From the NCBI GenBank assembly GCA_047967505.1, contig CM106538.1: a stretch of 64,000 nucleotides of DNA; one strand, 5' to 3'. Shown here piece by piece: positions 6,181 through 61,362 of this stretch. The DNA comes from Dipteris shenzhenensis (Eukaryota). The notes under the pieces were generated by a model. That model was not told the origin of the DNA, searched no databases, and was given only the letters and a program-made list of their open reading frames with translations. Made by a program: the position numbers and the translations under genes. The number at the start of each line of letters is the position of its first letter. The first letter of the stretch is position 1.

Positions 6181-6189
6181 TTTATTTAT

Positions 6190-13483: not shown

Positions 13484-14720
13484 TATTAACGTCCACAAGA
13501 GGCCTCGCAGGCCTATGGGACAAAGTACGGAATCAAGTAACTCATACAGACCACTGTGGGTTGGGGCAAAGGGCTCACTAAGGCCCTTGTTGAGTACTAA
13601 AATGCTATACTAGTACAAAATAGCAAAAAAGTAGCAAAATAGCATGAGGGTGGCATGAAAATATCAAATGCTTAGGGCTATAGTCCCAAGTGCATGAACC
13701 GGCTCCACGTATCCAGGCTCCATGGTGGCTCTTTGATGAGATGGTCTCATCGATCTTTGGATCTGATGGGCTATGTCAAGAGTGATGCCTCGCCTCGGTT
13801 GATCTCCCCTAAGGAGAACTGAAATAGGTTGAACCTCAATCGTGTGTGCTCTGGTCGCCTGTCGCACCGTGTACGGTCTCTGTGTCCCTCGCCTGGTAGT
13901 CTCTCTCCATTGATCCATATATCTCTCATGTTGGCTAGCTCCTCCTCCTCTATCCCAAAGTGCCCGCGGGTTGAGTCAAATGCATAGAAATCCGTGACTT
14001 GTCTCTGCACTTGGTCTAGCTTGGTATCCTGTGGTGCGGTGGTCCCATCCTCTTGCTCTTTGATATGTCATAGTAGTGTCTCCCTGTGTCATTGCATCTC
14101 CATTAGGAAGAGCTCAATACGGACCTGCCTGCTCCTGGAAGTGGATCAGTCGTGAGAGTGGGCCAAAGCCGTACCCCTCTTGAAAAAGGCAGTGGTAGCG
14201 CCCTTGGATCTCATAGTAGGCTGGGCAGACACATATAAAGTGCCCCTCTGTCTCGACCGCCCCCATCGTGCATAACCTGCAAGTCCGTTGCTCTCTGGGT
14301 ATGCGTGCAGCTCTCCTTGTCTCGATCCTCAATTGATGGGACGACCCGAAGAGAGTCGGTGAGAGAGGGCATCCCTGCTTTACTCCGATCGTGCTCTCAA
14401 TCCAGTCTGATAGGCCTCCTGGGACACGAACTCTCCCTCTGACGGACTCGTATAGGCTCACCATTCCCCAGAACATAACCTCTGGAATGTGGATATCCTG
14501 TAGTCTCTTGATCATGGGGGATCATGGGACAATGTGGAAGGCCTTCCGAAAGTCTACAAAACATGCGTAGACTTTGTGGCGTCTCGATTTCGCCTCCTCA
14601 ATGACAGTCCTCAGGGTGAAGATGTGGTCTAGAGTGGAGTGCTGTCTCTGGAAACCTGCTTGCCCTAGAGCACGCTGCTCATGTGTCTCTGTATGGCTGC
14701 TGATCTCCCTCTCCAGTATC
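13483..14720 (-). mobile_element. RTE-X-like LINE family 2, internally deleted copy with intact 3' end
   Basis: GQAGF...VDFRKAF...GVKQGCPLSPTLFG fused to SSHQLRIET...CRLC...EGHFICVCPAY (C-terminal CCHC), C-terminal extension, 3' stem-loop, (TC)n tail. Confidence 0.85.
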
Positions 14721-14799
14721 AAAAGTGGTTGTAGTAGAGCTGGGTCTTGGTGGGGAACTCTTGGTCCCCCCCCCCTCTCCCCCCCCAAGTGCAAGATGT

Positions 14800-15830
14800 G
14801 TGGAGCTAGAGGAGATCTAACCGTATGATGCGGTTAATCTCATCTCGTGGGAGTCGCTCTAGTCGGGCCAAGGCGCCATGCCCTTGTGTGAGTCATGCTC
14901 TGGTTGCGTGGGTCATCGTGAAAATTGGCCCTGTGAAAACTGCACCCAAGTATGTGTAGGACTGCACAATCTCCACTGGCTGACTCTTGTATGTAAAGCT
15001 ACATCGGTGAAGCACTGTGTAGAAGGTGTTGAAGATCATGACCTTGGTCTTCCCAAGGTTAACCATCAGGTCTCTCTCTTTGCAGAACACCTCTAGGGCA
15101 TCTAGATGTCTCTGTAGTCCCTCTGTTGAAGATGACAGGAGGACTATGTCATCTGCATATAGTAGAATCTGTATCATCAAGTTTGCTAGTGGTGCTCCCT
15201 CGCCTCCTAGGCGGTCTATGAAAGATGTAATCTCATCAATGTAGAGCCCAAAGAGAGTCGGTGAGAGAGGGCACCCCTGCTTTATTCCGATCGTGCTCTC
15301 AATCCAGTCTGATAGGCCTTCTGGGGCACGAACTCTCCCTCTAACGGACTCGTATAGGCTCACCACTCCAGATCAAAACCTGTGGAATCTGCATATCGTG
15401 TAGTCTTTTGATCATGCGGGATCGCGGGACAGTTTTGAAGGCCTTCGGAAAGTCTACAAAACAAGCGTACACTTTATGGCGTCTCGACCTTGCCTCCTCA
15501 ATGATAACCCTCACGGTGAAGATGTGGTCTAGAGTGGAGTGCTATCTCCGGAAGCTTGCCTACCCCAGAGCACGCTGCCCATGTGCCTCTGTATGGGTGT
15601 TGATCTTCCTCTCCAGTATCAATCCATAGATCTTTTGGCCAGTGTGTGGCCAATCATGAGAGTGCGATAGTTCTCAGTATCCATGGGGTCGCCTGCCTTG
15701 TGTATCGGTACTATGGTGGTGGTACTTGATGAGGGTGGGAAGCCGTGACATATGGCGTGATTGAACATCTGTGCTAGTACCAGAGCCAAAACCTCCTGTC
15801 CATGATCGAAATGCTCAATCTGTAGCCCCT
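14800..15830 (-). mobile_element. RTE-X-like LINE RT fragment (second copy)
   Basis: PIHKAGDPMDTENYRT; GIKQGCPLSPTLFGLYID; LLYADD; VNLGKTKVMIFN; YTYLG. Confidence 0.9.
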
Positions 15831-19198: not shown

Positions 19199-19966
19199 GC
19201 AGCTGCGTATTTGAGTCTAGAAGAGCTGAAAACTCTCTATGAAGAAAAGAGATGTTTTAAATGCAAAGAACCAGGTCATGTGTCTCGGGATTGCCCAAAG
19301 TGGAATGAGGAGAAGGCTGATGTAGGCAAAGGTGATCAGAAGGGGAAGAAATAGAAGACCATGGCTGGTTTGATGCCTGATGTGATCAGTGAACAGACCT
19401 AGGGTGAGGAAATTGAGTTATGCAGAGCTTGGGATAAGGTTTGGGATCAAACAGCCCTTATTTTCTTTGATCTAGGTGAAAAGGCCAACTTTATTTATTC
19501 AGAGATGGCAGTGAGATTGGACATTTGAGCCGAGGAGATGTGACTGAGCTGTGAAGCCGGTATGGCTAGCTTGGAGTTCACTACTTCTGTCACACCTATC
19601 ATAGGGAAGTTGCGCTTGCATATTCAGTCTTTTGTGTATAGAAGCCAAGAAGAGAAAAATTACAGTTTCACATAAGGGGAAGACCCATGTAATTGATGCA
19701 AAATTAAAAGGGGAGTCTATCCCAGTTGTAACGGATTCTGCCATTAATTCTGTAATGAAAAGCCATATTTCTGCGTACATAGTTTTTGCTAGAGAGATAC
19801 CCCCTGTAAATGAAGAGCATACTGTTTCCCGTTTGGAAAAGCAAAGGACTGTTTTCTAACTGAATTTTCAAATTGCTTTTCTAATGAGTTGCCTAGTGAG
19901 CTTCCACCAGAAAGGCCAGAAGACCATGGGATTGACATCATACCTGGCAGTAGTCCACCCAATAAA

Positions 19967-22901: not shown

Positions 22902-23796
22902 ACCAAAAGGTAATACAAGAAACTCGTAGTGGCCATGCCTAGTTCGGAATGCGGTTCTATCTTTGTGTTTAGCATAGATACGGATTTAGTGATAACCCAT
23001 ACGTAAATCAATCTCAGTGAAATACTTCGTTTTGGCCAAACGGTCTATTAGATCATCGGAACGAGGTAGAGGGTATCGATTCTTAATTGTCACTTTATTC
23101 AATCGTTTATAGTCTATACACATTCTCCATGTAGCATCTTTCTTCTTTCTTAAGAGGACAGGTGCTCCCCAAGGTGATTTACTTGGGCGAACATAGCCCA
23201 TATTCAAATAATCTTGTAGCTGTGAAGCTAACTCATCCTCCTCAAGCTGGCTCATCCTATAAGGTGGAACACTAATAGATTGAGCCCCAGGTACTAAGTC
23301 TATGTGATGATCTACTGCCCGTTCTGGAGGTAAACCTTCCGGCAGTTGAGCAGGGAATACATCCATGAAATCATCTAACAACGTTCTCAATTCACGGTGT
23401 TCAAACACACTTAAATCATTCTTGTTATTAACAGATATAACAAATGAAGAAAGCGGAATCAAAACACACTGATAGACATCATAATGAGAAGTGTTTAATA
23501 TATTCCGAAGCTGCATCGCAGATACAATAGGTCCCTGAGAAGAGGGAATGCTATTACACTGAATACAAAATTGGGTGTCCGTATCCAAAAAAGAAAGAGT
23601 ATGGTCCTTTCATCCAATCCGAATATCGTGGGTTTTAAACCACTCTATTCCGATTAACAAGTCCACATGCTCTAAGTGCATGACATAGCATGTAAGAGCC
23701 GTTGTGTAATCTTGAATCCAGATAGAAAGCGCTTCAATCTTGCGATCCCAAAACTGCTTCCCAGCTGGAAGCTTCACCTCATAGGAGTGATCGCTA

Positions 23797-23917
23797 GGTA
23801 TCTGACGTGTACTGGGTACACAAGACTAGCTCAGGTAGCCTGGGGAGGCTTAGAGCTAGGCAGGCTTGATTCTCGGGTTGAGTGGCAACGGTACGAACCA
23901 GTTAGAGGTCTTCGCTA
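23797..23917 (+). repeat. Inverted 121-bp copy of gypsy A LTR inside its own protease region
   Basis: Reverse complement of LTR ~20356-20476; flanked by TCGCTAGGTAT at 23791-23801 and 23912-23922. Confidence 0.92.
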
Positions 23918-26038
23918 GGTATTGTGGACAGCCCCATCTTCTGCACAAGTTTGTAACTAACAAAGTTGTGAGAGCTGCTCGAGTCAAAAAGAATGTGAAC
24001 TCTTTGGTCCCTAACTTCTCCATAAACTTGGAAAAGATCATGGGAACCAAATAACGAAGTATTGAAGTGCAATTATAAGAAAGTGAGCAGGTAATGACAT
24101 TTACAAAAATACCTGTCATCGAAACTTGATTAGCTCCCTTAGCTTTGGTACCCGGACCCGCCTAGAGCTTCGGTCCCGGCGCTTGCTTCTGGTTCTTGCG
24201 CTTAGGACAATCATTCTTAGTGTGGCCCCGCTCCTCGCAGAAGAAGCAATGTCCTTCCTTCTTTAGCTTCAAGGTACGAAGGAAACGGGCACGACCATTC
24301 TTTGCTTGAGTCAAATGTTTCTTGGAGGCGTTGTCTATAGACTTCGACTCCCCGGTACTAGTGGTAGACTGAAAGAAGAACTTCCTCTTGTTCTTGCCAC
24401 TCGTGTCGGCAACTGTGGTTCCCTTTGCACTGGTCATGGTATCATCATAAATGCGCGCGTAATTCATGGCCTCTTGCAACGTGGTACATTTGTTGTTCTT
24501 GATCTGTAACTTGTATGACTCAGGCAAACCATCCACAAAGAAACCTAACAGGGTCACTGGATCCATCTTTGTAGCTCTGGTCGTCAAATCCCGAAACCTC
24601 TGAAGATAAACCTCAAAAGTCAAATTCAGCTTGGACATATCGAGGGCCTTGAGCTTGTCTACGATATCATAATCTTCCTCCTTCAGAAACTTTTTCCTGA
24701 AGACCCCTTCGAATTCTATCCATGTTGCAGGCTTGGGTTGGAGTTCCTTTTACCACAATAAAGCCTTTCCTGACATAAACCCGGCTGCAAGCTGTATTTT
24801 CTTGTCATCTGGATGAGGGTGAAACTGGAAGTGTACTTGCCACTTGTGCAACCAAGTGTCAACAACCTCCTTGGTACGAGACTTCTGGTCTCCAGGGAAA
24901 GGATCTGGAGTGATGTTCTGACCTAACACTAAAGCCATGGCATCCACATGCGTGAGCGCTTGAACAGTGCTAGTCAAAAGTGTGAGTGTAGTCTGAATCC
25001 CTTGGAGTTGCTGCGTCAACCCCGTTTGATTTGTGTTAACCTGCTCAAACTTTCCATCAAGAGCAGTGGTGAATTCACTGAAGGCTTGTTTCGTAATCAG
25101 ATCATCGTAGAGACCTTGGTCATCCTCCGCATGGTACTTCATATCTTGGTCTGCCATTGCAAGCTCAGGGTCTACAGAATCAGCCATGACTGAAATCTGA
25201 TCTGAAAAGAAGATAGGCTAGAGAAGAGAAACAAGCAGGTGGCCTCGGAGCTAGGAGGTAGAAACAAAGTGAAAGCTGGCCAAGAAGGAGGCGATGGAAG
25301 AAGGGAAAGCTGGTCGATGAAGAAGGTAAGCTGGCTGAGCTGAGCTGACGATTCAGCTCAGATTCTTGAACCTGGGACTCCGCTCTTGGCTGTCCGTACG
25401 AAGTACTGTAGCAGGCCGTACAAGTGTTCTGGCTCCCAAGCATGAAGATGTAGAGGGGCTGGAATTCTGCGCAATCTACAGGCTATGAGAGAAGGCAATT
25501 TGACCGTACTAATAGCGGGAGAGCAGGCTTTTAGTAAAGCCCTGCTTTACCAAAAGCTCACCCTCCAAAAACAGAGGGGTAGGGCTTTTTTAAGCCCCCA
25601 GGCCCCCCTGAAAAGCAACTGGCCTAGATTGCGATCCAGCCCTATCCTGTTGCGCACCTTCCTACGCTCCCCTTCTACCTGCCATCACAACCCCTGAGCA
25701 GCCAGTCGACATGCGGGATCCCCTTTGGTTCGCCCCAACTCTATTGTCTCTTCTGACTCCCTTCTGATGCCTCTACCCGGACCTCACTACTTCCTCCTAA
25801 CTACACCTCTCTCCCTCTCTCTCAACTTGTCACTTCTTGCAACGAAATCACCCTGCACTCTCTCTCTCTCTCTCCTTCCTTCTATCCCAATCTAATACCA
25901 CTTCCCTTAAGCGATGAACCAGCAGACACTTGCAGGGTTTTGAACATGAATTTCGAAATTAGGGCATACCTGGAGAAAAAATCGTCCAAAATTCTCGCAA
26001 TAGAAGTTCCTACCTCAGGAGTTGGCTCTGATACCAAC

Positions 26039-26568
26039 TGACACAATCCCAGCACTCCTGAAACCTCTGATCTGCAAGCAAACACAAGAACACACCAACG
26101 TGAGGAAACTGAGCAGGTTGCTTACCACCCAACCATGACATCTACGAGATGTGATCCAGAATCAGAAGATGTCCCCTCCGAGCCACGAGCTGAGCTACTG
26201 GCACGAACTCCCAACCAGATCCTAACCAGCCTGGTGTCCCATACCACCAGGTGACACTGTGAAGGCTGGGATCTGCTGCTGAGCCTTAGGCTACGCTATG
26301 ATGCAGGCGCGCGTCCGTGACTTAATCCAGGATCAGACCTAGCACCTGGGAACGAGACTTGCTCCCATCGGCTCCCTGAGAACTGAACCTTTGAGTCCCT
26401 TATATAGACTCGGGCCCCAAGCGCCAAAAAGAGCAAAGACCTCTAATTGGTTCGTACCCTTGCCACTCAACTCGAGAATCAAGCTTGTCTAGCTCTAAGC
26501 CTCCCCAGGCTACCTAAGCTAGTCTTGTGTACCCAGTCCACATCGGATACCAATCCGTGCACATGACA
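26039..26568 (-). repeat. 5' LTR of gypsy A
   Basis: Direct repeat of 19967-20493; adjacent to the tRNA-iMet PBS. Confidence 0.95.
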
Positions 26569-26824
26569 ATAAACCACCTTATAGAGATAGTGAAGCGCAA
26601 CATGAGGAGATCATGAGGCAGGTTAATGAACTTTTGGAGAAGGGGCTGATTCAACCAAGCTCATCGCCTTATTGCTCTCCAATTCTGTTGGTTCATAAGA
26701 AGGATGGTTCTTGGTGTATGTGTATTGATTACCGCGCCTTGAATAAGATCACCATTAAGAATCGCATCTCTATACCCAGGATAGATGACATTCTGGATAG
26801 GTTGAAGGGGGGAGCTATTTTCAG

Positions 26825-27496
26825 CATAGTTATCAGAGAACGTGAATGGTAACGGAATGTCGACCCCATGGGGAACGGGAACACCCAAATCCTAGGGAAC
26901 ATGAACGGGAAGGGAACGCCACGCCATCATACCCATAAACAAACATACTATTCTATACATTAGAAAGCTTAAACTTAGAATCGAAGACTCAAAACATTGC
27001 AATTGCTTTTGGAGTAAGGACTCAAGACTCAGGACATAAAGTCAATACTGAATCTTATAGATGAATCATAATCATTGATAATAGAATCTAGATTAATCAT
27101 TATAGCTTGCCAATGGCATACAAAAGCAAATTCCATCAGAGACAAGGCACAAGCATATGAGATTATCTTGAATCTTGGAATCTTGAATCTGGATACAAGA
27201 AAATCAGAGTGAGACCTCCTACTACTGAGGCTCCTAGAGCTTAAAAACCTAGTTGCTACATGCATGATCCACTCAACACTCATTGGTTGCTGCCCTCTTC
27301 CTCCTCTTCATCATCTAGATGATTTGCATACAGGGAATGGCTTAGGGAACATTCCCTAGACGTTCCACAAGGGATGTGGAACGTTCCATAGCCGTTTCAT
27401 GGACCAGACGTTCCACAGACGTTCTCTTCAAGCTCAGTGAAGAGAACGCGGTTCCAACGTTCCATAGCTATGGAACTACATTCCCTGGCAACTATG
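26825..27496. mobile_element. Non-autonomous hAT element (672 bp)
   Basis: TIRs CATAGTTATCAGAGAA / revcomp CATAGTTGCCAGGGAA; 8-bp TSD ATTTTCAG/GTTTTCAG; removing it restores RT GAIFSLIDLKSGYHQ. Confidence 0.92.
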
Positions 27497-30400
27497 GTTT
27501 TCAGTCTCATTGATTTGAAGAGTGGGTATCATCAGGTTCGCATATGTCCAAAAGATGTGCATAAGAAGGCGTTCATAACTTCTTTTGGGTTGTATGAGTT
27601 TTTGGTCATGTCTTTCGGACTCACTAATGCTCCTGCCACCTTTAACCGCATGATGGACAGGATCTTTCGAGACCACAGAGCCTTCGTGGGTACATTCTTT
27701 AATGACATGATTCTGTTTTCGAAAGATGAGAAGGAGCATCAAGAGCATCTCGCGATTGTGTTCGTTGAGCTTAGGAAGTAGAGACTGTTTATAACCCTAA
27801 AAAAGAGTGAGTTTTTCATGGGTGAGATTCATTTTTTGGGGCATATTGTTTTCAAGGATGGGGTTCGTATGGATCCAGCTAAAGTGGAAGTAATGCGGAG
27901 TTGGCCACAACCAAAGAATTTGCACGAGGTTCGTAGTTTCTTGGGTTTGTGTTGTACTACCGTCGTTTTATCCGTCACTTTGCAAAAGCTGCAGCCCCTA
28001 TGCATGCACTTTCCAAGAAGGAAAGACCTTTCCAGTGGACACAAGTGGAGAATGACTCTTTTGAGGAGCTGAAGCGCAAGCTTACAACAGATCCGGTGCT
28101 GATTTTGCTTGACTTGAGGAAGTCTTTTCATGTGCATGCAGATGCTTGTGGTAAAAATGGTATTGGAGCTATCCTCACACAGGATGGCCATATTGTAGCT
28201 TATGAGAGTCACATTTTACAGCCAGCTGAGTTACATTTACAGATTTATGAGAAGGAGATGCTGGTTGTACTTCATGCTTTATCCACTTGGAAACATTATC
28301 TATTGGGAGCTGATTCTACAGTACAGATGGATTATCAGTCGTTGCGCTACTTTCTAATGCAATCTAAGCTGTCCGAGAAGCACATGAGGTGGGCAAACTT
28401 CTTGTCAATGTTTCATTTTCAGATTGTACATGTTGAAGGCAAGAAGAATATGGTTGCACATGCTTTGTTCAGGAAGGCACAAGTTTCAGATTGTGACAAT
28501 TGCTTATCACAATGAGTTGGATGTAATGAAGGATTACTATGCGGAAGATGAGCAATTTGCTGAAATATTTGACCAGCTTAATAATGGACAGAGGCACGAG
28601 TATTATGTGCTTAAGGATGGGTTTATGATGATGCATGGCAGGTTGTGTGTAACTAAGCAACGAAGGCAGAAGGTTATGAGTGAATGTCATGATCCACCAT
28701 ATGCAGGACATCGTGGTATTGATGCCACAGTCAAGGCAGTAAATCATTTCTTTTATTGGCCTACGTTGTGTCGCGATGTTGAGGAGTATGTTCGCACATG
28801 CATAACCTGTCAGAAGATGAAGTATGATCGTAGGAAGACTCCTGGACAGTTACGTCCTTTGCCCATACCCGATGGACCATGGGAGAGCATAGCCATGGAT
28901 TTTATTTTTGGTTTGCCGAGGACACCTACATGTAATGATGGATTATGGATGATCAGTGATCGCTTCAGGAAGCAGGCACACTTCATTCCTTTACGGAAGA
29001 AGATTGGGGCTGATCATACGACGAAGTTATCTATGCAGAATAATGCCAAAGTCCATTGTGAGTGATAGAGTCCCGCGCATGATCAGCTTGTTTTGGCGTG
29101 GACTTTTTGAGAATATGGGCACTGCTCTCCTATTTTCTTCTTCTTTTCATCCACAGACCTCATCCACAGACCGATGAGCAACTGGAGGAGGCTAATTCCA
29201 CAGTTCTAGATTTGCTGAAATGCTATGTTTCGGAGCACTAGTCACAGTGGGAGAAGTTTTTACGAAATATATGACCAGCTTAATAATGGACAGAGGCACG
29301 AGCATTATGTGCTTAAGGATGGGTTTATGATGATGCATGGCAGGCTGTGTGTAACTCAGCAGTGAAGGCAGAAGGTTATGAGTGAATGTCATGATCCACC
29401 ATATGCAGGACATCGTGGTATTGATGCCACAATCAAGGCAGTAAATTATTTCTTTTATTGGCCTACGCTGCGTCGTGATGTTGAGAAGTATGTTCGCACA
29501 TGCATAACCTGTAAGAAGGTGAAGTATGATTTTGTGCAGAATAATGCCAAAGTCCATTGTGAGTGATAGAATCCCGTGCATAATCAGCTTGTTTTGGCGT
29601 GGACTTTTTGAGAATATGGGCACTACTCTATCATTTTCTTTTTTTCATCCACAGACCGATGATCAATCGGAGGAGGCTAATTCCACAGCTCTAGATTTGC
29701 TGAAATGCTATGTTTCGGAGCACTAGTCTTAGTGGGAGAAGTTTTTACCATTGGTGGAGTATGCATACAATAACACGGTACATTCTTCCATAGATAAAGC
29801 TCCATTTCAGATAGTGGAAGGCCGACATAAGATTCCACCCATCTTGTAGACGAAAGATAAAATTTTTAAGGCTGATAACTATGTGGAGAGCTTGGACATA
29901 GCTTATCAAAGGGTGAAACAAGCATTGCAGAAGTCACAAGAGAAGTAGAAAAAGGCAGTACACAAGCACATGCATGACATTGTCATCAAGGAAGGTGATT
30001 ATGTCTTGCTGCGTTTTCAAAAAGCAAGGCTGATTAGTTCACGGGGTCGTACTCGGCTATTCCCTAAGCTGAGTATGAGGTACTATGGGCCTTTCAAGGT
30101 AATTGAGCCGATTAATGATGTAGCATTTCGCTTATAGTTGCCTGACCATTGGAGGATTCACAATGCTTTTCATGTGAGTCTTCTTAAGCCTTTTCAAGGT
30201 GATGTGTCTACGGATCTGCCTTGGGAGATGCAGCCAGAGGTGGAAGACATGGATGAGATCCTTGTATCTGAGTAGATTCTAGCACCTAGGGAAAGGAAGG
30301 TAAGAGGTAAAGTTGCACGGCGCTACTTGGTGCATTAGCTTTACCTTGAGGCTTTCCAGTTGGAGCCCACTTTGCGTGGCACTCATTCAAGTTTAGCAGA

Positions 30401-44761: not shown

Positions 44762-44828
<67 letters not shown>
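44762..44828. repeat. (TA)n(GA)n compound microsatellite
   Basis: Directly visible; abuts a LINE 3' end. Confidence 0.95.
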
Positions 44829-44832
<4 letters not shown>

Positions 44833-45275
44833 TTAAAGTCTTCAGAAGACCGATGGGTCTATGAGACTGTGAAAATCCTGATACAAGCGAGCTGTGAGGG
44901 TGGAGCTACTAAATGAGCATCCACACCAATGCAGAATGCAAAAAAATGCAAAATGGTAGTACTAAGTACTGAGTACAACATAGTCATGTCGGTGGTCGAC
45001 TACGTATCAGTCACATCATCATCATCATCATCATCATCAAGACATCAGGGGTGGATGAGGCTCTGGAAGCATGAAGTCAACGATAGAGTGCTGTCGACCA
45101 CTCGAGGGTGCAGTCCTGTGACGTCTCCTGGTCATAGCTCTATGAATAACAAGGGCTACAGTAACTCCTGTCGGCTGTGCTTTGACGCGAAACATGGAGG
45201 AAATATCCCCAAGTGTAATATGCGCGCCCGTCCTTTGTCTATGCTATCAAGTCACTGGCTCTGGGTCCCGATCAG
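44829..45275 (-). mobile_element. 5'-truncated RTE-X-like family 1 copy a
   Basis: HITLGDI, PTGVTVALV, (GAT)n and conserved 3' end AGTCTCATAGACCCATCGGTCT. Confidence 0.85.
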
Positions 45276-45307
45276 GAGGGGGGGAGAGAAAGAAAGAAAG
45301 AAAGAAA

Positions 45308-45784
45308 TTTTATTAGAGTCTTCGGAAGACCGATGGGTCTATGAGACTGAAAGAAAACCTGATACAAATCATAGTAAGGGTGGAGCTACGAAAACGAGCA
45401 TCATCACCCGTGCTGAATCCTAAGTCTGATCATACATAATCAAATACATCTGAGTGTGACAATGAAAAGAAAAAAGACTGGAGCAGAGCGGAATCCTCTG
45501 TATGTTATGTCGCCCTGGTTGGTGCATAGCTGGTGATGGGACGCTGGCCTCAAGGGGTGCCGTGCATCTCGGTCTCCTGGACGAGGCTCGACGCAAGACT
45601 AGAGCCACCGTGACTCCCGTGGGACGTATCCCGAATCTAAACAATGACAGGAGGTCCCCCAGAGTGATCTGTGTGTCCCCTCGATGTCTCGTCGGGTCGG
45701 GGTCTGTGTCACGTCTGCGGCTAGAGACTGGACGATCAATGTCACTCAATGGGAAGAACCCTGTGATCTTGCTTTGAGAGGTGT

Positions 45785-45788
<4 letters not shown>
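45308..45788 (-). mobile_element. 5'-truncated RTE-X-like family 1 copy b
   Basis: QSKITGFF, QITLGDLL, PTGVTVALV, conserved 3' end, (TTTC)n tail. Confidence 0.85.
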
Positions 45789-45849
<61 letters not shown>

Positions 45850-45852
<3 letters not shown>

Positions 45853-46430
45853 ACTAAAGTCTTCGGAAGACCGATGGGTCTATGAGACTGTGAGAATTCT
45901 GATACAAACAAAGCGTGAGGGTGGAGCTACTAAATGAGCATTCACACTAATGTAGAATGCAAAAAGCTAGTGCTAAGTACTACATAGTCATGTTAGAGTG
46001 GTACGACTACACATCAGTATCATCATCATCATCATCGTCATCATCATCATTGTCATCATCCTTCCTCCTGCTCATCATCAGTTCATCTAGGTGGATGAGA
46101 CAACGGAAGCATGAAGTCGGCGATAGAGTGCTGTCGGCTGCTCATGGGCGTGGTCTTGTGTCGTCTCTTGGTCATAGCTCTGCGCCTAACAAGGGCTATA
46201 GTGACCCCTGTCGGTTGAGTTTCGGAGAGGGGATATCCCCAAGTGTAATTTGTGCGTCAACCCTCTGTTTGAGCTATTGTCTCACTGGCTCTGGATCTCG
46301 ATCGTGTCGGGGCCTCGTAGTATGGGGGTCCACATGCTCTGGCTGGAAGAACTCCATGATCAAGCTCTGAGAAGGGTCTACCAAGGAGGAGGTCTGCTCC
46401 TGTCTCCGAGACTGAGTAGACGCTCGCGGT
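45850..46430 (-). mobile_element. 5'-truncated RTE-X-like family 1 copy c
   Basis: QSLIMEFF, QITLGDI, PTGVTIALV, (GAT)n, conserved 3' end, (TC)n tail at 45789-45849. Confidence 0.85.
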
Positions 46431-46450
46431 GAGAGAAAGAAAGAAAGAAA

Positions 46451-47708
46451 GTCATATTAACGTCCGCAGGAGACCTCACGGCTCTATGGAACAAAGTACA
46501 AAATGTCAAAAAGACTTACAACATCTGGTAAGCCAGAGGGTCGAGGAGTGCACATGGCATCTCAGCTCGATTATCATATCACACCAATACATACTAGGAC
46601 TATAAAACTAATAGAAGTGGCCTTCATAACATCAGTTTAAGAGTGAGAGCCTTTAGGTTTAGATTTGAAATCTCTAATTAGTGTTGTTCCATCTCGATAC
46701 ACAGTCCATTTTCCAGCTTTATGTGCATCTTTCATTTATGTGAGCTTGACACTCCTCTGCTTGAGCTGAGTTAAGGTGAATTCCTCAGAGATCCAAATCC
46801 TTGTGCCCTTCAACTTGTTTGTTTGTCAAAGAATCTTAATTCTTCTCGCTCTCTCCTTGAAAAGCACTTGTACTTGCATTCTTGTTTGGGAGACACAGCT
46901 GATATCGTTATGATCCCACTCTACTTGTGGTATTTCCTTCTTGAGCCATGCAATCCTCTCATTTGCTGTGTAAACTTCTTCTTCATTAAAAAGGCCAAGG
47001 CGATCCTTGGGCAGTCCTCCAATACGTAGTATCTTCTTATTAGGTGCTATAGCCTGCTGCTCTTTTACTTCTGTGTACAAATCCACTTTATTGAGTTTGC
47101 TTTCCGCAACAATAGCCATCTCTTCCTCGGCTGAACTCACCTGGGCGTTGATCATTTCCTTGACCTTGGAGACAAGAGTTGGAGCTGGTGGAAATGTGCT
47201 GAATTTCTCCATAGCTTCTGCAATAATTTCTTGCTTGCCTTTGTTCTCCATCTCGTTCACCTTCTGCTAAGAGCTGCAACTAGTAGCCTGAGCTCTCTGA
47301 CTTCATGCTCCAAGTGGTAAATGTGCTCCTGATGGTCTAATCTGATCCTTTTCCTGTAGGTCAAAGCATAGGGACTGGGTGTTGCTGCAATGTCTGAGTA
47401 AGAGGGCTTACTGACGGGGGTCGTGGTGAAAGTCTTCACCTTCAGGAAATCCATGGTGGCCTTGCAGATTCTCCAAGCCCTTCACTGAAGCTAACCCCCC
47501 AGGCTGAGCCAAGGGCTCAGCTCAGCCGGGGGTAACAAGCTGTATGGAGGCCGACGACCTGTATACGGGCTAGGTGGTACGGACAAGCTGTGTATGGCGA
47601 CCTGCTGTACGGTGCTGTTGAATGGCCTGTTGTACGGGCGGCGCTGATGTACGGGCTGATGTATGGGCTGCTGTACGGGCTGAGCAGAGAGCTGAGCGGG
47701 TGAGGGAG

Positions 47709-47711
<3 letters not shown>
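46451..47711 (-). mobile_element. ORF1-only (HAL1-like) non-autonomous non-LTR element with RTE-X family 2 3' end
   Basis: Broken ORF 47454-46637 with coiled coil, ILRIGGLP and KLKGTRIWISEEFT...GKW.VYRDG (LINE ORF1p RRM/CTD-like), then ~190 bp to a 3' terminus matching 13483-13530; bounded by microsatellites. Confidence 0.65.

Positions 47712-47769
<58 letters not shown>
47712..47769. repeat. (GA)n microsatellite
   Basis: Directly visible. Confidence 0.95.
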
Positions 47770-47775
<6 letters not shown>

Positions 47776-47779
47776 GATT

Positions 47780-47851
47780 GAAACGCAGTACCGTTTCGAG
47801 AGCCCCGAAACTGAGTTTCTGGAGCCCCAAAACTGAGTTTCTGGAAACTAT
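47780..47851. mobile_element. hAT-type terminus fragment
   Basis: Ends GGAAACTATG (revcomp CATAGTTTCC, same as the CA(C/T)AGTT TIR family) with a duplicated 22-bp subterminal unit. Confidence 0.5.
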
Positions 47852-47869
47852 GCTAGGAGCTTTGAGACC

Positions 47870-48460
47870 GCCCTTGTATTAAAGCCCTCTTGAGACCCTT
47901 CAGGATCTATGGGACTGGTGGTCTCTATAAAAAATAGTGATCCTTTACATTTGGTGAATTAGAAGACTCTTTGGGCTAATCCAAGTCGTTTCGGTGTTCC
48001 AAAACTTCTTTAGGTAGCTCCCTAGCTTTGTAGCTGGCTGTTCCAATAGATGTTTCAGGCTGCCTCTGCTGTTTTCATACCTTTCTCTGATGTCTGCATA
48101 GGCCTGGCATCTTAGGAGTACATGCTGCTCATTTTCTACCTCTCCCATGTGGCAGATTTTGCATATTCTTTCTTCTCTTCGGACCCTCAGTCTTGTCCAC
48201 CTTCCCTTCTCCACTTCTAGGCTGGTTTTCATTTTGCATATTAGATACTTTTTGAACATGGATATGTCTTCTCCAAGGTAGTTTTTGCATCCCATAGCTA
48301 CCCATTGGATTAATTTCTTTTTTATAGAACTGCATTTTCGCACCCAAGTCTTGCCATAGTTTTTTTAGCATATTCTGTATCACTAACTCTTCATCTCACA
48401 TGTATCCTCTAGAATATCAGCAGCTGTTATACCCATAATTCCATCCATTTCATCCATTCT
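47870..48460 (-). mobile_element. RTE-X-like LINE family 3, 3' fragment
   Basis: LEVEKGRW...REERICKICHMGEVENEQHVLLRCQAYADIR; 3' stem-loop at 47883-47916. Confidence 0.8.
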
Positions 48461-50432: not shown

Positions 50433-53400
50433 TGAACAGCACAAGACCGATAGAATAGCGCAGGAGCTCACATAGTGTGGTGTAGGGTGTGGAATCACAA
50501 ACATCTTAAACTTGCATAGGATAGATGTGCAAACTCATCAATAGACAATGAACCAGCCAGATATAGAAACCACCAAAATAATATATTTCCGTCCAAAGCT
50601 ATGGACACAATACAAAAGAGAGAGATTCAAAGTCCCACCAATGGTGTGGTCCTCTGATCTTACCACAAGGTACTTCTCCTATCTGCCGACTATCTCTAGA
50701 CTCGAGCCCGCGTGCTCCACCTCGAGCGTCCGTAGACTCAATGAAACCGGCCTCTAATCACTTAGAGGGCAGTGGAACTAAACCTTTAATCACTTCAGTA
50801 CTTATTTACAGCTCACAAAGCATAGATCACAACCATTAACCTTTGCATGATCACCATTTGGCATTCACCCATTTGTTCACAAACAAAACCACTGAAAAAG
50901 GGATGGAGGCTAGAATGCCTCTGCTCAACAAACATAGACAAGTGCACCCTATTGGCCCCAAACACCATGGCGCCCCTTTTGGTATTTCTTTATATTTCAC
51001 AGTGAAATGATTACAAGTTGCATCTAGGAGACCTTCGCTGCAACTGAGTACGCAGCCCCAATTCACTGAGCCTTCGCAAGGCTTTCAAGCTAGAACACCA
51101 TCACATAAGTGCAGTTAACCCATAGGCTCAATCCAAAGGCATTCTCTTTTCCGAGTGCAATTCCCATTGGCTGTCCAGATGCAATCACACTGCACCCTAG
51201 CTGCACTCTCTTTGAGTGGTTTCCAGATGGCATTCACAAAGCTTTTCAAAGCTCTAAAATAAAATCAGCAAAGTACCCAACCAAAGAATGACTCATGTAG
51301 CACTGCCTGGGCACCTGTGAACCAAGAAAGAGGCGGCACACGAGGCCAACCAATAGCTTATGGAAAAAAGAAGCAGCAAAATCACAACTCACCAAGCCTT
51401 GAAAACTCGAACCAAGTCCTCAATCGCCAAGAGGACATAGTAGCCAATGCCCAATTGCATTCTCAGCCAAAGAGGAGTGCAAAGGCATGAAGAAAGAGCA
51501 TTTACAAGAGCAGACCAGCAAGAATTCCATTGAAAAATGTGAAAAGAAGCACTTTTGTCGCGAAGAAATGGGAGTTCTTGGGCTCAAAAGAAGCGTGCTT
51601 CAGAGAGGAATGGATTGAGAAGGTTTTGGAGAAGTTTCATTGCCGGAAAGTCCTCCAAAACTGAGAAAACCAGTCAACCAGCGCGTGGGACCTCTCGAAA
51701 TTCAACAAAAAGCTGTAGCTTTGCAAGAGGAGAAGCCCAGGAGGCGGTAGAAGCAAAAAGGTCCAGAAAATGCCACTTTTGCAAATTCGACCAGCAAAAG
51801 AAGTGCTCAGCTCTGCCCGTTCAGGGAAAAGCATATCACTACGAAGGGGAGGAAGAGGGGAAGCCATCGGGCCAAACGGAAGTTGAGGAATCCAAACAGG
51901 TGAGGAGTTATGAAGAAAAACGGAATTCAGGTGAAGGAGGCTGAAAAACCAGTCCAAAATCTCAACAAAGGGAGAAGATGAGAGAGAAAACCACACATGT
52001 GAAGTTTAGAAGGCCCATGAAGGTCCAGGAATGGCAAAGGAGCATGTAGAAGGCACTAGAGCCACCTGGAACTATAGGGGGGGCCACTGAAGGTACATGG
52101 CCCTCTAGGGGGCCCATTAAAAATGCCACATCATCATTTCCCAACAACCACTCTTTTAATTCCTTGGAATGCCTTTGGGCCTAGGGATTAATTACGCTTA
52201 TGTGCTAGGCACCATGCTGCGTTTAATTACACATTATTAAGCCCATGCTTGGACTTTTGAAACCAAAGTTGTCACGGTCTTGTAGTACATTAAAGTACTT
52301 AGAATTTCACGCCCCCGTGACATACCCCTCTCTTGAAACAGCTGCCCCAAAACACAGGAGTGAGCATGAAATATAGCATGAAAGAGTATACAACAAAGCC
52401 GCAGCTATAGTATATAGAGAGAGTGAAAATATGGCTAGGAGAGGCATGCATCCATCGCTCAAAATCTATGTGATCCTCGGCGATCAACAGTCAAGATGGA
52501 TCAATATCATGAAGTCTCACAGCAGAAATACTGTCAGCTTAGCATCTCGGATGAAACATACAGTGTCATCAAGCGACCTCATGAAATAACGGTGAGCCCG
52601 TCTGTAGTGAGGGAGTGGAGGTGGTACCCCCCTCTCGAACACCAGGTAATGCTCCAGATGCTCGCTTTGCTGAACTACCTGTAGGAGCCCGGACCGCAGT
52701 CGGCTCTAATTGAAAAGCATTAAGGTAAAGCTGCAATATCCTAGGTGAATCTGCCAGTTCACCTTCCTCCATGCATTTCGCATCAAGTGATGGGTAGTTT
52801 TGAAATTTTACCAAGTAGCGATGGATAACTTTACCCTTGAGCTTTCTATCTCTGTGTGCCAGAATCTGCTATGGGACCAGAAGTTCATCCTGTTCTTCCA
52901 CTTCAGGCTGCAATATTACTTTAATAAGCTCATCAGGTAAATTCTCGGGAATATCTCCATGATATTACTTTAATAAGCTCACATGAAAGGCATTAGGTAT
53001 CTTCCAATGCGGAGGCAACTTCAGCCTGTAAGCTATCTCGTTTATCTTTTCAGAAACCTGGAAAGGACCATAGTAACGCATATTCAGCTTTGTGTACAAC
53101 CTTTCCTTGCCTTTCTTATATTTCAGCCTTGCCTTCTGAAAACGCAGCAAAACCCAATCACCTTCTGTGCATACCAATTCTGTGCGGTGCTTATCTGCTG
53201 CTCTTTTCTGCTTGTCCTGACTTCTTTGCAAGGCATATTTGATCTTCTTGTAAGCCTCTTCAAGGCTTTCCACAAAACGATCAGCCTCGAAGATTTTCTC
53301 TTTTGTATGCAAAATGGGAGGTATCTTCCTGGCACCTTCCACTATTTCAAAAGGTGCTTTACCTGTGGATGTGTGTACCGTATTATTGTAAGCATATTCC

Positions 53401-56400
53401 AGCAAAGTCAAATAATGCTCCCATTTGCTTTTGTGGTCTGAGACATAGCATTTAAACATATCCAAGATGGTAGAGTTTTCCTGCTCCGATTGTCCATCAG
53501 ACTGAGGGTAAAAAGATGACGAATCCTCGGATCTCTATCACTGAATATGGATTCAGGCATCCCATGATACTTGAAGACATGCTGCAGAAACAATTTGGCC
53601 ATTTGATCTGCTGTAATTTTCTTTCTTACTGGCACAAAGTGGGCTTGTTTGCTAAATCTGCAAATTATTGTCCACAATCCATCATGTCCAGTAGGAGTAC
53701 GTGGAAGATCAAACACAAAATCCATAGCTATGCTTTGCCATGGTCTATCCGGAATTGGCAAAGGGTGTAACAACCCAGGTGCCTTCTGCCTGTCAAACTT
53801 TACTTTATGACAAACCATGCATGTTCTCACATATTCTTTCACATCTTTCCTCAAAGATGGCCAATAAAAGTATTGCTCCATTGCTGTAATTGTTGCTGTA
53901 ATTCCCCTATGTCCTGCATATGGAAGAGCATGACTTTCCATTATGACTTTCTATCGCATCTGATCAGTGACACAGAGTCGTCCATGCATCAAAATGAAAC
54001 CCTCTTTCAACATATAGTGATCATGCCTTTGACCATCAGAAAGCTGATCATAAATAGTTGAAAAATCAGCATAATTAACATATTGATCTTTCATCACATC
54101 TAACACATTGTTGTAAGCAATGCTCACTGCTGAAACACTGGGTTTCTTGGAGACTGCTTCAAGTTGTGGTTTCCTGGAAAGTGCATCAGCCACGACATTT
54201 TTGTTACCCGGCACATGTACAATTTGAAAATGAAACATTGAGAGGAAGTTAGCCCATCTCATGTGCTTTTCAGATAATTTTCTCTGCGTGAGAAAATATC
54301 TAAGTGACTGATGATCTGTCTGCACATAAAGATCAGCTCCAAGAAGGTAATGTTTCCATGTGGTTAAAGCATGTATCACTGCTAACATTTCCTTCTCGTA
54401 TGTCTGCAAGTACAATTCAGCATGTTTGAGAACTCTACTCTCATATGCAACCACTCTGACATCTTGCATCAAAGTGCCTCCTATGCTGTTCCCACATGCA
54501 TCACAAGTTACAGCAAAGGGTTTTGCAAGATCTGGCAAGATAATAACGGGTTCAGAACACAACTTTTGCTTGAGGTCTTCAAAAGCTGCATTTTCCTTTG
54601 GTCCCCACCGAAACGGTATAGCTTTCTTTTGTAAAGCATGCAAGGGAGAAGCAATTTCTGCAAAGTACTTTATAAACCTCCGATAGTATGAACACAACCC
54701 AAGAAAGCTTCTGACTTCATGCATATTTTTCAAAATTGTCCAACTCCTTATGGCCTCAACTTTTGCAGGATCCATCTTGACTCCATCCTTTGACACTATA
54801 TGACCGAGAAAATGAATCTCATGCATAAAGAACTCACTTTTCTTGGTGTTTATCAATAGCTTGTGTCTTTTCAACTCTTGAAATACAATAGTGAGATGTT
54901 TCCTGTGCTCCTGCTCATTTTTAGAGAACACAATGATGTCATCGAAGAAAGTGCCCACAAACTTTCTGTGTGCTCTAAAAATTCTGTCCATCATTCTATT
55001 GAAAGTAGCAGGTGCATTAGTCAAACCAAAAGGCATCACAAGGAACTCATATAAGCCAAATGAAGTGCGGAAGGCAGTCTTGTAGACATCTTCAGGCCAA
55101 CGGTTCTTAATTGTGACTTTATTCAAAGCCCTATAATCAATACACATTCTCCAACTGCCATCCTTCTTTTGTACAAGCAACACAGGGGAACAGTAAGTTG
55201 GCTGTATTAATTACTTCACTTGTGACATTATCTCTTCCTGTTGTGCCTTACTGACACGATAGGGAGGTATATTAGGCGGTGAGCTTCCTGGAATTATATC
55301 AATTTGATGATCCTCGGGCCTCTTGGGAGGTAATTCTTGAGGAAGTGCATCTGAGAAACAATCCTGAAAATCTGAAATAAAAGCAGCCCTTTCTCTATCT
55401 AAAGCAGAAAGAGTAGAGCCTTCCTGAATTGGTTGGTTGTCCTCTTTGACAAAAATCAAGTACGCTGAAATATGACGCTTTATTACATTGGAAATACAAG
55501 AAGCTGAAACTACAGGGATGGAGTCGCCTTTCAACTTTACATCAAGTACATGATTTTTGCCTCTATGAGTTAAAGAAATCTTCTTGTTTCTCATCTGCAC
55601 ATCAGCCCCCACCCTGTACATCCAAGGCATCCCAAGCAAAGCATCACACTTTGGCAAAGGCATAATGTAGAAGTCCTCTGCATCCTGATATCCCTGGATA
55701 TGCATCCTCAACTTGCCAATGATAGGAGTGACAGGTGTGTTGAGTTCAGGGTTGGCCATATCACACATGCCAGATGGCCCCATTTCCTCAGGCTTGATGC
55801 CAAGCCTTCTTGCCATATCAGGAGTTACGAAATTCTCCTTTGCCCCAGAATCAAAGAAAAACAAACAATTCTGATTTCTGATTTTTCCCCATGCTCTGCA
55901 CATCTCAGTCTTTTTCGTTTCTTCTTCATCATGTGCATGTGGCAAACTCCCAATCACATCTGGAAGAAGTCCTGCGGAAGGTTTAGGCCTTTTGCCCTTC
56001 CGATCAGCCTGTTTATCATGATTCTTATCATCATCTGACGTGTCTCTTTCTTGAATGGGCAATCATGAGAAGTGTCCCTCTCCTTTGCATATAAAACATT
56101 TGTTTTGCTCCATGAGTGACTTTTTATCTTCATCAGATAACTTGGTACGGGGCTGTTTATTAGGCTGTCCACGCCTTTGACCAGCTTTGAATTGGGCTTT
56201 TCCTTCCTTTTGAAACGGTCGTTTGCCATTATTTTTATTTTCAGATTTGATGTCCTTATCCTGGTGTTTGGCAGCCCATTTGTTGTCTTCTTTCTTGCTG
56301 TCCATAAAGCCCAAATTCTTCTCCTGCATCCATGCATATGCTGTCCTTGCATTCTCAATTAATTGAGTCATAGAACCCACCTTGGTTTTGATGCAATAAT

Positions 56401-57616
56401 CACGTAGCTCACTGGGCAATCCACAACAGTACCTCTCTATTTGCTCTTTCAAAGAAACATGCCTATAAGAGCTCAATGGCAGCAAAACGTCCCAAAACCT
56501 CTGGATGTAATCATCAAGATTCTTGCAAAGTTTGTATGACAAGTCATGCCAGTGTGAAAGTACTTCAACTTAAAAAGTTGGAGTAAGCTAAGTAGAAGAG
56601 AACACTTGCTTAAATTCCAGCCAAGTAGCAGGTGCATCTCCATGAAGCATAAGGTTGGTGTACCACTTAAGTGCATTGCGTTTCAAAAATGTGGCGACCT
56701 TCCTCATCTTGGATGCTTCTGTAAACAAACTCCCAAGAAATGCAGCATCAAACTGTTGCAGGAATGTGAGGGCTTTGTACCTGTCCTGTACTCCATTATA
56801 TGTATCAAACTTGACATGAGAACCACCATCCTTAAATTCTTTATATACATTTGATATTGGCTGTCCCAAAGATGGCTGTATATTTGCAGCATTCCCTTCA
56901 CTAGGGAGAGCCATGCTTGGCTGAACATTAGGCATGGGAGCATATGCTGTGGCTTGCATGCTTGGCTGCATTCCCACATTGTCATACATGGCTTGCTTTC
57001 TATGCCCAATTGGCGGTGAAATCAACATAGCATCAAAGATAGAATTTGTACCAAAATATTCAGGTTGCTGCCTCAAATATGGCTGAGGTGGTTGAGCCAC
57101 ATTTATGGACTGCACATTATTATTTTGAGGAGTAGAAGTACCCAAACCAAGGCCTTGTGCTGGCTGCTGTTGCACTGGCTGTACTTTTTGTACCTCTTTC
57201 TCAAGTGCTCTTTTGGGTGATCCCTCTCTCTTGGAAGTCACTTTCTGAGTCAATTTTGATGGCTGTCCCTCATGGGAAAGTGATGCATGAGTGTGCGGTC
57301 TGCCATGACAAGCTGATGCATGTGTGTACTCACTCTTTCCGTGCTTGTGCTTTGTTGATTTCTTCTTCTTCTTGGCATTTGTTTACACAATATGAGCCAA
57401 ATTTTGAGCCAGCTGAGTCAAAGTAGTCACTGCACTTGCAAGCTGTGCATTCAACATAGTAGCATCATCTGACTCACTGCTAGAACTAGTATCACTGTTG
57501 AGCTCAGTTGTAGCTTCATGTGTGGCCTACTCAAAAGGCATTTGTTGTGCTCCCTGTAGCTGTACACTAGCTGGATCATTAAGGCTTTCTTGCCTTCTTC
57601 TTTGAGGAGTTGTGGA
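50433..57616 (-). mobile_element. Ty3/gypsy element C (chromovirus-like), 5' end lost at the hAT junction
   Basis: gag 56063-57253, protease (FDSGA) 55211-56062, RT/RH 53951-55183 (FFDD), integrase 52965-53941, chromodomain (YLVKFQNYPSLDAK); PPT AAGAGAGGGGTA; 3' LTR 52322 to ~50433. Confidence 0.92.
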
Positions 57617-60085
57617 CACAGTTACGTTGAAATGCATTTCAGAGCCTAGCCAGGCTTGAAACGTCGTTTCAGAGAAGCCCCGTTTTCTGAAATGCGTTTC
57701 AGGGTCCTGAAACGGATGGCTGAAACGTTTCAGCTAAACTGAAACGCGTTTCAGAGCCTTGAAATGTGCTGTTTCAGACAACACATGCTGCTAGGTCTCC
57801 AAAATTACGCGAAATCCGCCGCCAGTCCCATTTTTTTTCTTTTTGCTTTCGATTTTGGCCTCCTTCCACTCCTTCAGTCTCATACTCTCTCCATCCTCAA
57901 GGTTTTCCAGCCCTGCTTCAGCCCCATTCACTCCTTTCCTCTCCTTTCTCTCCTGTAGCCTACTTCAGCCTTCCATCATCATCTACTCCCCTCCAGCCCC
58001 TCTTTCAGCCCTCTCTTTCAGCCTTCTGTTTCCTCCTCTTTCAGGCCCCACTTTCAAGTTTCAGCCCTCTCTTTCAACCCTTGGCTCTCTTTGCAGTTTC
58101 AGCCCCTCTTTCAAGCAACAAGCTTCCATGGCTTCAAGACACCCTACCCCTGAGTCTCATTCCGAGGTAGAATTCACCCAATCAGATTTTTGGTGGAGTC
58201 AAGTCGATCTCCTATGTGCCTACGACTCCAAGAAAGGAGGCCCTCGCAAGTTCATGTGCAGGCTTTGTGGATTGAAAAGAGGTGGGATTCCTGATAGGGT
58301 GAAGGCCCATCTTCTTGGCATCAAGGGAGAGGGGATTACAATATGCAATGAAATATCCGAGGAAGAGAAAGCAAGGTTGGCACGAGAGGTGGAGGCATTT
58401 CCTTCCGCAAAGAAAGGTAGGACTATTGCATCCCATGGAGGAGCTACTTCAGGTGCTCATATGGCTAGTGCAAAAAGGAGTCCTCTTCCCTCTGCTGCTG
58501 CTACTACAATTTCATCTTCTGGGAGTGCACATGTTCTTGGAGCTACAAGTTCTACTCCTACTGCGTCTCCTTCACCTCTCTCACCTACACGAAGGCAAAG
58601 CACCCTTTATACTGCATGGCATCCACAAAGGAAGGCACAGGTAGATGCAGCCGTGGCCTGTTTCTTTTACTCGAATGGGATTAGTTTCAATGTGGCACGG
58701 TCTGCTTATTTCAAGGAGATGGTGACTGAAATTACAGCCTTTGGGCCCACATACACCCCTCCCACTTTTGATGCATTGAGGGGAAAGCTTCTAGAGGATG
58801 AGGTGAAGGCAGTTAATGAGGCCATTCAGCCTGTTAAGAAGAAACGGCATACGTATGGGGTCACTTTGGTAGCAGATGGCTGGAGTGATGTACGTAGTCG
58901 ATCACTAGAGGATATTTTGGCATATTGTAGAGGATCTTCTTTTTACATACACTCCATAGAGTGCGGAGTACAAGAAAAAACAGCAAATGTTTTGATGCAG
59001 ATGTGGGCAGATGCAGTGGAGTATGTGGGCCCGTCTAATGTTGTGCAGTTTGTTTCAGATGGTGAAAATACCAATAGGGCTGCAGGTGCATTATTGGAAC
59101 AAAGATACCCCCATATTCAATGGAGTTCTTGTGTTGCCCATTGTTTGAATAATTTGTTGAAAGACATTGGCAAATTACCTCGGGTAAAAATTGTAATTGA
59201 TAATGGAAGAGAGAGAGTTGGGTTCATTACACGCCATCATTTTTCTCTCTCTTTGTATCGCACCTATGCAAGGAAGGAGCTTTTGAAGTATGCAGAGACA
59301 AGGTTTGCATACAATTATATGATGCTTCGCAGACTCATTGAAATGAGACCTGCTCTTAAACAGGTTGTGGCAAGCCCACAGTGGGATGCATGGCCCACTT
59401 CAAAGCAGGCTCTTGGGATATTGGTGTACGATTTGTGCATAGGCAGCGACGACTTTTGGGCTGATGCATCACACTTGTACGACTTGTGTAAGCCGATTGT
59501 CTTGTTGCTAAAAAAGGTTGATGGAGACATGTCTTTTATTGGCAAGGTATATGAGGGGATGGATCGTATGATAGAAAATATCAAAGTGTTAGAGAAAGAT
59601 CCCCACAGGTTGAAAGAGCTCGAGGACTTGGCTGTGACTAGGTGGAATCAGTAGTACTCTCCCATTCATGCGGCTGCATTTGTGTTGGACCCAGAGTTTC
59701 AACACAAGGCAACTGCACAACAAAGTGATGCAGAGGTGGTCCGTGGTTGGAACCTCACTCTTCAGAAGATGGTGCAAATGCCAGAGGCTTGCCGGACAGT
59801 GAAGGACCAGCTCGCCAATTACCGCAATAAGGAGGGCATATTTGGATGGCCAGATTCCCAGCATGCTCCTCCTCTTGTGAGCGCATGTGGAGCAGCTTTG
59901 CCCACATCCATACAAAGAAGAGGAACCGTCTCAAAGCACACAAGGCGAACGATCTTGTCTTTGTTAATGCAAACTTGCGTTTGCTTAACAGGATGAGACA
60001 GGAGTACACTCATGACAAGTTCATTGGTTTCCATAAACCTGATGACACCCTCACTGATGATGATGAGGGGACTTCAACACCTTGA
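57617..60085 (+). mobile_element. hAT DNA transposon, 5' terminus and transposase, 3' terminus missing
   Basis: Starts CACAGTTAC with GAAAC/GTTTC subterminal repeats; the 3' part is highly similar to 5490-6180 in inverted orientation. Confidence 0.92.
58128..60085 (+). pseudogene. hAT transposase (BED finger, DUF659/RNase-H-like core, dimerisation domain), disrupted
   Basis: CRLC...KAHL; DGWSD; VVQFVSD; CVAHCLN; ETRFA; in-frame TAG at 59652; deletion at ~59864; SCERMWS..HTKKRNRL. Confidence 0.92.
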
Positions 60086-61208: not shown

Positions 61209-61362
61209 AAAACGCCAGGCATAAAATGACATTAGCCCAAATAAAATAGTCACCTTACAGGAAATTTAAGAAATGACTTGTAATGTCAAATTTGTCATTT
61301 CTTAAATTTCCTGTAAGGTGACTATTTTATTTGGGCTAATGTCATTTTATGCCTGGCGTTTT
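61209..61362. repeat. Perfect inverted repeat, 69-bp arms with 16-bp spacer
   Basis: 61209-61277 is the exact reverse complement of 61294-61362. Confidence 0.95.

Follow-up and report, generated by a model that had tools for sequence, protein, structure and literature searches.

An abundant ORF1-only retrotransposon family in Dipteris shenzhenensis, likely copied in trans by two-ORF LINEs with the same 3' stem-loop

Results

A 1.26-kb unit between microsatellite tracts

We analysed a window of 64,000 nt from contig CM106538.1 of Dipteris shenzhenensis (GCA_047967505.1). One copy of a non-autonomous LINE with ORF1 as its sole reading frame lies on the minus strand, directly downstream of another LINE. 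The relevant features are as follows.

46451..47711 (-): whole ORF1-only non-autonomous LINE copy, 5.2% from its own subfamily's majority sequence
47533..47711 (-): variable C-rich 5' leader with CCGTACAG-like repeated units (repeated part 47602-47695)
47476..47532 (-): conserved 5' RNA motif, a hairpin plus a G-rich arm that can pair with its loop
46637..47454 (-): broken ORF1 (ATG 47454, stop 46639-46637)
46451..46636 (-): 186-nt 3'UTR, of which only the last ~47 nt match two-ORF LINEs
46462..46492 (-): 3' terminal two-helix stem-loop, common to two-ORF LINEs
46431..46450 (-): (TTTC)n/(TC)n tail
47712..47769 (-): (TC)n tract, likely the insertion target, coming after another LINE's 3' end
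47851..48364 (-): directly upstream, the closing part of a LINE from a different family (zinc-knuckle region of the ORF2 C-terminus, plus a related terminus)
13484..15760 (-): rearranged fragment of a two-ORF helper-type LINE (RT pieces, 3'UTR and the same terminus)

An earlier note on this DNA had described a unit of ~1.26 kb, and its description holds throughout. The unit occupies 46451..47711, with (TC)n upstream, a repeated leader and (TTTC)n after the terminus. Its single ORF (47454-46637, minus strand) is broken by one frameshift, where the copy reads AA at 47263-47262 and other copies read AAA, and by two in-frame stops (46828-46826 and 46738-46736). The motifs KILRIGGLP, KLKGTRIWISEEFT and AGKWTVYRDG are found in the ORF, and the coiled coil that had been proposed corresponds to a helix at residues 41-86 of the predicted model. 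Neither EN nor RT sequence was found inside 46451..47711, and the terminus said to follow ~190 bp past the ORF, resembling what the note called family 2, closes a 3'UTR of 186 nt (79% over 68 nt to 13528-13463). Contigs from a sequencing run whose RNA origin is only a guess cover 26 of 30 bins, a coverage that demonstrates neither expression nor the full unit; a 537-nt contig from the same run has different letters at both in-frame stop positions.

The rest of the window is rich in other repeats. Two hAT-like transposase pieces (57795-59654 and 5423-6230) are 96-99% identical and inverted, as judged from ORF text and repeats. ORF translations alone point to broken Gypsy-type LTR retrotransposon pieces (20669-29644 and 52965-57382), Copia-like pieces (near 11142-11516 and 17100-17564) and L1-like pieces (near 521-1596, 8971-9508 and 18637-19236). 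There is also a perfect 69-nt inverted repeat with a 16-nt spacer at 61209-61362.

The unit is one copy of a large family

Searched at the DNA level, the plant's own genome (1.9 Gb) gave 2,041 candidates, of which 40 were scored, with 50 matches. Among the 30 best loci, 28 cross the ORF-to-3'UTR junction in one alignment (27 of 29 besides the window copy). The join, whose copy number the earlier note had proposed as a check, is thus multicopy, and a one-off deletion is ruled out.

A protein search with an intact 270-aa ORF1 frame (locus L013, protein P0001) returned 11,575 candidates, a figure that takes in distant ORF1s and is not a copy number. Full-length matches among the 142 scored were ~49 to 100% identical, and the ORF1 of intact relatives measures about 270-277 aa. 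Seventy loci were examined, comprising the top 30 of the protein search (13 of which repeat DNA-search loci) and 40 more divergent ones picked by hand. Under a strict pattern the terminus lies 155-235 nt past the ORF in 40 of the 70; under a looser one it was found in 54 of the 67 loci that reach the ORF end. Ten have neither terminus nor tail, several of which are interrupted by other insertions (not all 10 were inspected). EN sequence occurs within 400 nt of the ORF at a single locus, the chimera L143.

Another 58 deep loci were collected with a deep subfamily and the Adiantum homologue as queries, after two self hits had been dropped. EN follows the ORF in none of them, and the terminus lies within 330 nt in 45 by eye; a script had counted 51, from which six spurious early matches were removed, and four of the loci are near-identical duplicates on one contig. 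Over the whole range of subfamilies, shallow and deep, EN therefore stands directly behind a family ORF1 at 1 of 128 loci. This exception, L143 (G000:C4:5956992-5962991, oriented 1501-3035), is an ORF1-only element joined to a helper ORF1 end and EN start at a short shared word (microhomology), followed by a jump to the ORF2 end, and it may reflect a template switch.

Copies are dispersed over all large contigs and have a common 3' end and tail with ragged 5' ends. Layout, UTR length and 5' motif are constant across subfamilies of about 40% to 100% identity. We reject a host gene and also an LTR or DNA transposon; there are neither LTRs nor terminal inverted repeats, and the copies agree at the 3' end but are ragged at the 5' end. 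The unit at 46451..47711 is a decayed member of a large family that has spread by retrotransposition as an ORF1-only unit. As a side observation on loci L123-L162, for which the first 150 nt past the ORF were compared, the DNA at the very ORF end is strongly conserved, and several subfamilies repeat this ORF-end DNA once inside the 3'UTR.

ORF1 has a predicted L1 ORF1p-like fold

The AlphaFold model of the intact 270-aa ORF1 (28-row alignment, pLDDT 82, pTM 0.53) has the predicted architecture coiled coil-RRM-CTD, as in L1-type ORF1p. With this model as query, the top nine Foldseek matches were all human L1 ORF1p (E 1.3e-6 to 4.5e-5), and a VIA fold search likewise placed human L1 ORF1p first (Z 11.4, rmsd 5.8, 164 aligned; next match 7.1). 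The Foldseek comparison that the earlier note had suggested thus came out in its favour, at E 1.3e-6, and the encoded protein has a predicted L1 ORF1p-like fold.

At the sequence level, the profile match to L1 ORF1p is weak (E 0.05). Neither the element nor its relatives nor the helper ORF1s matched any ORF1 family in Pfam, Transposase_22 included; a word-indexed protein search with ORF1 gave no matches, and a single-sequence search of the PDB returned GCN4 coiled coils only. Clusters retrieved from the ESM Atlas were eukaryotic and without names (0.90), besides a weak lead to Baculo_FP_2nd (0.87, 12% of members). A HMMER scan of 1.8 billion representatives yielded 49 matches, and two of the ten looked up carry names (Adiantum capillus-veneris and Psilotum nudum). 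A tree was built from 47 RRM-CTD regions, with a midpoint root only and the Psilotum row as a long branch. In it, a 97/93 branch divides 16 element ORF1s from nine helper ORF1s; of 22 outside proteins, 17 fall on the element side, among them the one from Adiantum.

ORF1 is constrained between subfamilies and neutral within copies

The 65 aligned copies fall into many subfamilies, eight of which have at least three copies and were used (45 copies); 20 singletons or pairs were left out. The majority sequences of all eight are open. Pairwise dN/dS between them has a median of 0.17 (range 0.10-0.27, 28 pairs); dS is saturated (>1.5) in many pairs, and the least diverged pairs give 0.19 and 0.10. 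Uncorrected codon counts between subfamilies give ratios of 0.17-0.40. Individual copies differ from their own majority by a median of 3.7%, with 57 stop codons in 45 copies and an uncorrected copy-to-majority dN/dS of 0.47. For private changes the ratio is 0.90, measured against a neutral expectation that has the same base-change spectrum.

On these codon comparisons, ORF1 is under purifying selection between subfamilies and in neutral decay within copies. The between-subfamily dN/dS of about 0.17, the open majorities and the neutral private changes together mean that the protein mattered on the lineages that spread. Several lineages were thus spreading in parallel, each in need of its own ORF.

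Two-ORF LINEs share the structured 3' terminus

Twenty helper loci were chosen by RT similarity. The helper LINEs measure roughly 5 kb, encode an ORF1 of about 330-360 aa followed by EN, RT and a C-terminal zinc knuckle, have a long UTR, and end in the same terminus and (TC)n/(TTTC)n tail as the ORF1-only element. Where an ORF1 end is present, EN starts 58-159 nt past it in 10 of 11 loci. One helper, L117, combines an ORF1 with Exo_endo_phos (E 5.5e-4, below cut-off), RVT_1 (96.6 bits) and a CxxC...HxxxxC motif. Named relatives of the helper RT come from Adiantum and Taxus, and one relative (P0052, 60% identical) scores 67 bits to human L1 ORF2p and 89 bits to R2. The helpers L103-L122 combine at least two different ORF1 N-termini with C-terminal parts that resemble each other, and a third type of ORF1 occurs in a second helper family (L062, L152).

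RTEX elements have two ORFs, an AP endonuclease, an RT and a C-terminal zinc knuckle. The helper has this two-ORF/EN/RT/zinc-knuckle layout, which is common to other clades and not diagnostic of RTEX; nor is its microsatellite (non-A) 3' tail. The helper LINE may belong to the RTE-X clade. Microsatellite-type tails are given for six of six green-algal RTEX families in Table 3 of PMC3747384, and RTE-X-labelled repeats are listed for Ceratopteris in Table 2 of PMC6890710, in the parts of both papers available to us.

The ORF1s of helper and element are distant homologues (hhalign 99.1%, 24% identity over 131 columns). The element UTR aligns to helper UTRs over its last ~47 nt only (up to 74 nt in 2 of 11), and its first 130 nt score no better against them than shuffles do. 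The earlier note had held that the element borrowed its 3' end from family 2. The terminus is indeed shared, but with ORF1s 24% identical and ~47 nt in common the element is not a recent deletion product of that family.

This terminus folds as two helices, with 97.8% of cells paired across 47 sequences of both element kinds. Three of nine pairs changed on both sides, and 0 of 500 shuffles reach the covariation score, a control inflated by sequence relatedness. In the window copy itself, the stem-loop is no more stable than shuffled sequence (z 0.08). According to the accessible part of PMC3747384, a structured 3' end held in common is a sign of LINEs that recognise their template stringently, and the 3' stem-loop is likely the recognition signal for the helper RT. 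Because related termini occur in several LINE families, these data do not single out one helper. Genome searches with the C-terminus of the upstream LINE family gave only itself, so the ORF1 of that family was not seen; searches with P0013 and P0009 at tight cut-offs also returned self only.

A private 5' RNA motif

The 5' leader gave no match above noise to helper 5' regions. About 20 nt before the start codon lies a conserved motif with a long hairpin (47532-47497; folding z -4.2) and a G-rich arm (47482-47476). Across 38 aligned copies the hairpin is 88.5% paired, and six of nine pairs changed on both sides. Pairing between the hairpin loop and the downstream arm is possible, which makes a candidate pseudoknot. 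A loop's own arm beats shuffled partners (0 of 2,000 as good), or 78 of 5,000 with 16 representatives. From these alignments the 5' pseudoknot is likely, and the loop-arm signal is modest.

The motif model also finds deep subfamilies (L203, L208, L212-L214 and L221), in which the motif presumably resembles plant telomere-type words. Before helper ORF1s it was not found: each of the four hits within the 20 helper loci stands in front of an ORF1-only copy. Rfam offered nothing meaningful for either this motif or the 3' stem-loop (five hits, far below gathering scores), and by eye the 5' motif misfits HDV-like, twister, pistol and hammerhead layouts. A role in translation or packaging would be a guess.

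Copies appear to insert into (TC)n tracts

Of 86 copies, 55 have a (TC)n or (TTTC)n tract in the 650 nt upstream (backgrounds 3.9% and 10 of 117), and 23 of the 55 come after another LINE terminus. Among 5'-truncated copies, 7 of 21 have a tract within 45 nt (background 1.1%), and 14 do not adjoin one. That truncated copies stand next to the tract at all suggests that it is the target rather than the element's own head. In the window, 44787-47921 (-) holds a head-to-tail series of five LINE-type termini from at least three families; all have a (TC)n/(TTTC)n tail behind them, which is interrupted in the first. Copies appear to insert into (TC)n tracts that are often the tails of other LINEs. 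In the 28 copies examined we found no target-site duplication in unique sequence; both flanks are microsatellite, and duplications may be hidden there.

Discussion

We consider it highly probable that the unit belongs to an old, abundant ORF1-only retrotransposon family whose protein has a predicted L1 ORF1p fold, and which is copied in trans by the EN-RT of two-ORF LINEs that share its stem-loop. The multicopy junction and the ORF1p-like predicted fold support the earlier note's proposal of a parasite analogous to known ORF1-only elements.

Target-primed reverse transcription is an established mechanism, and the steps may be pictured accordingly in a single cycle. The element RNA would be translated, perhaps aided by the 5' hairpin or pseudoknot, and ORF1p made in cis would coat or package its own RNA. 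Helper ORF2p would then bind the 3' stem-loop, nick a (TC)n tract and use the (UC)n/(UUUC)n tail to prime reverse transcription. Selection could keep ORF1 because it aids its own RNA in cis, through packaging and competition for helper ORF2p.

Whom ORF1p serves could be seen differently. It might be kept for the helper or the host, as a cooperative partner or a restriction factor, and not for its own RNA. According to Kojima 2018 (PMC5786205, in the sections available), proteins of this sort probably form multimers with their counterparts from autonomous elements and increase transposition, and the chimera L143 is a hint that helper and element RNA can come together during a single round of reverse transcription. 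However, helper elements carry their own ORF1, and no single domesticated locus stands out. A benefit in trans would also exert no selection on single mobile lineages, whereas the ORF is retained in every subfamily. We therefore regard this explanation as unlikely. Less probable still is that the short elements arose by recurrent, recent internal deletion from an unsampled autonomous LINE family with the same ORF1. Only 142-150 candidates were scored per search, a few hundred of more than 11,000 overall, and internal deletions and chimeras do occur, as L143 illustrates. Against this, L143 is a one-off microhomology join and the sole case of EN behind ORF1 in 128 loci; subfamilies at about 40% to 100% identity keep layout, UTR length and 5' motif; and two helper ORF1 types lie across the 97/93 branch from the element. 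That the 3' stem-loop alone drives the spread and the ORF is carried passively, like a SINE's passenger, would fit the many broken (57 stop codons in 45 copies, nearly all affected) and 5'-truncated copies, but is very hard to reconcile with eight of eight open majority sequences, dN/dS of about 0.17 between them and neutral private changes.

Returning to an ORF1-only family copied in trans, a wider reading attracts us, to which we give a little less than an even chance. The family could be an ancient, fern-wide ORF1-only lineage that outlived its progenitor, with a distinct ORF1p and a private 5' pseudoknot, tracking the stem-loop of helper LINEs that look unrelated to it and homing to their (TC)n tails. 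If so, the HAL1/HeT-A way of life would have arisen a fourth time, here in a plant, and nature would provide a system in which to study what ORF1p in cis does for an RNA that receives ORF2p in trans. With ORF1 and ORF2 on separate elements, the role of ORF1p becomes directly testable apart from ORF2p. The element is no short-lived deletion product: it has radiated into many subfamilies that are under selection, and it has relatives in other organisms. Such ORFs are annotated as hypothetical host genes, KAI5066643.1 of Adiantum being a case if it comes from such an element.

Comparison with known systems

In the open-access papers searched, we found no ORF1-only element from plants or from the RTE-X clade; fern repeat libraries in supplements could already hold the family. 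Kojima 2018 (PMC5786205) names three non-autonomous LINEs in which ORF1 is present, HeT-A (Jockey), HAL1 (L1) and Ag-Sponge (CR1), and in the sections of that review available to us all three are from animals. A plant example tied to a LINE with a structured 3' end would add a further independent origin.

Like the element, HAL1 encodes ORF1p only and is non-autonomous (PMC5753468, accessible part), and the element ORF1p also has a predicted L1 ORF1p fold. HAL1 derives from L1, an element dependent on a poly(A) tail (PMC3747384, accessible part), whereas the element described here has a (TC)n/(TTTC)n tail and a shared structured 3' end. Moreover, the RT of the element's helper is, by way of P0052, no closer to L1 ORF2p (67 bits) than to R2 (89 bits). 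HeT-A is similarly ORF1-only, depends on a partner LINE and forms head-to-tail arrays (PMC5786205, PMC13534243). However, the Jockey ORF1 is gag-like with CCHC knuckles, as described in the available text of PMC13534243, and that of the element is without a knuckle; HeT-A is telomeric, while element copies are dispersed at (TC)n tracts. Ag-Sponge of Anopheles is likewise a bipartite non-autonomous LINE with ORF1 present (PMC5786205), and is set apart, by its description there and not by sequence, as an insect CR1 derivative.

RTEX-N1_Ec32 of Ectocarpus is comparable in being abundant and non-autonomous and in having its 3' end in common with LINEs, in that case of the RTE-X clade (PMC12477816). 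That element measures ~600 bp and has a 5' part of unknown origin, and the available part of PMC12477816 mentions no ORF, whereas the family described here encodes an ORF1p under selection. The element works like HAL1, HeT-A or Ag-Sponge and is a member of none of them.
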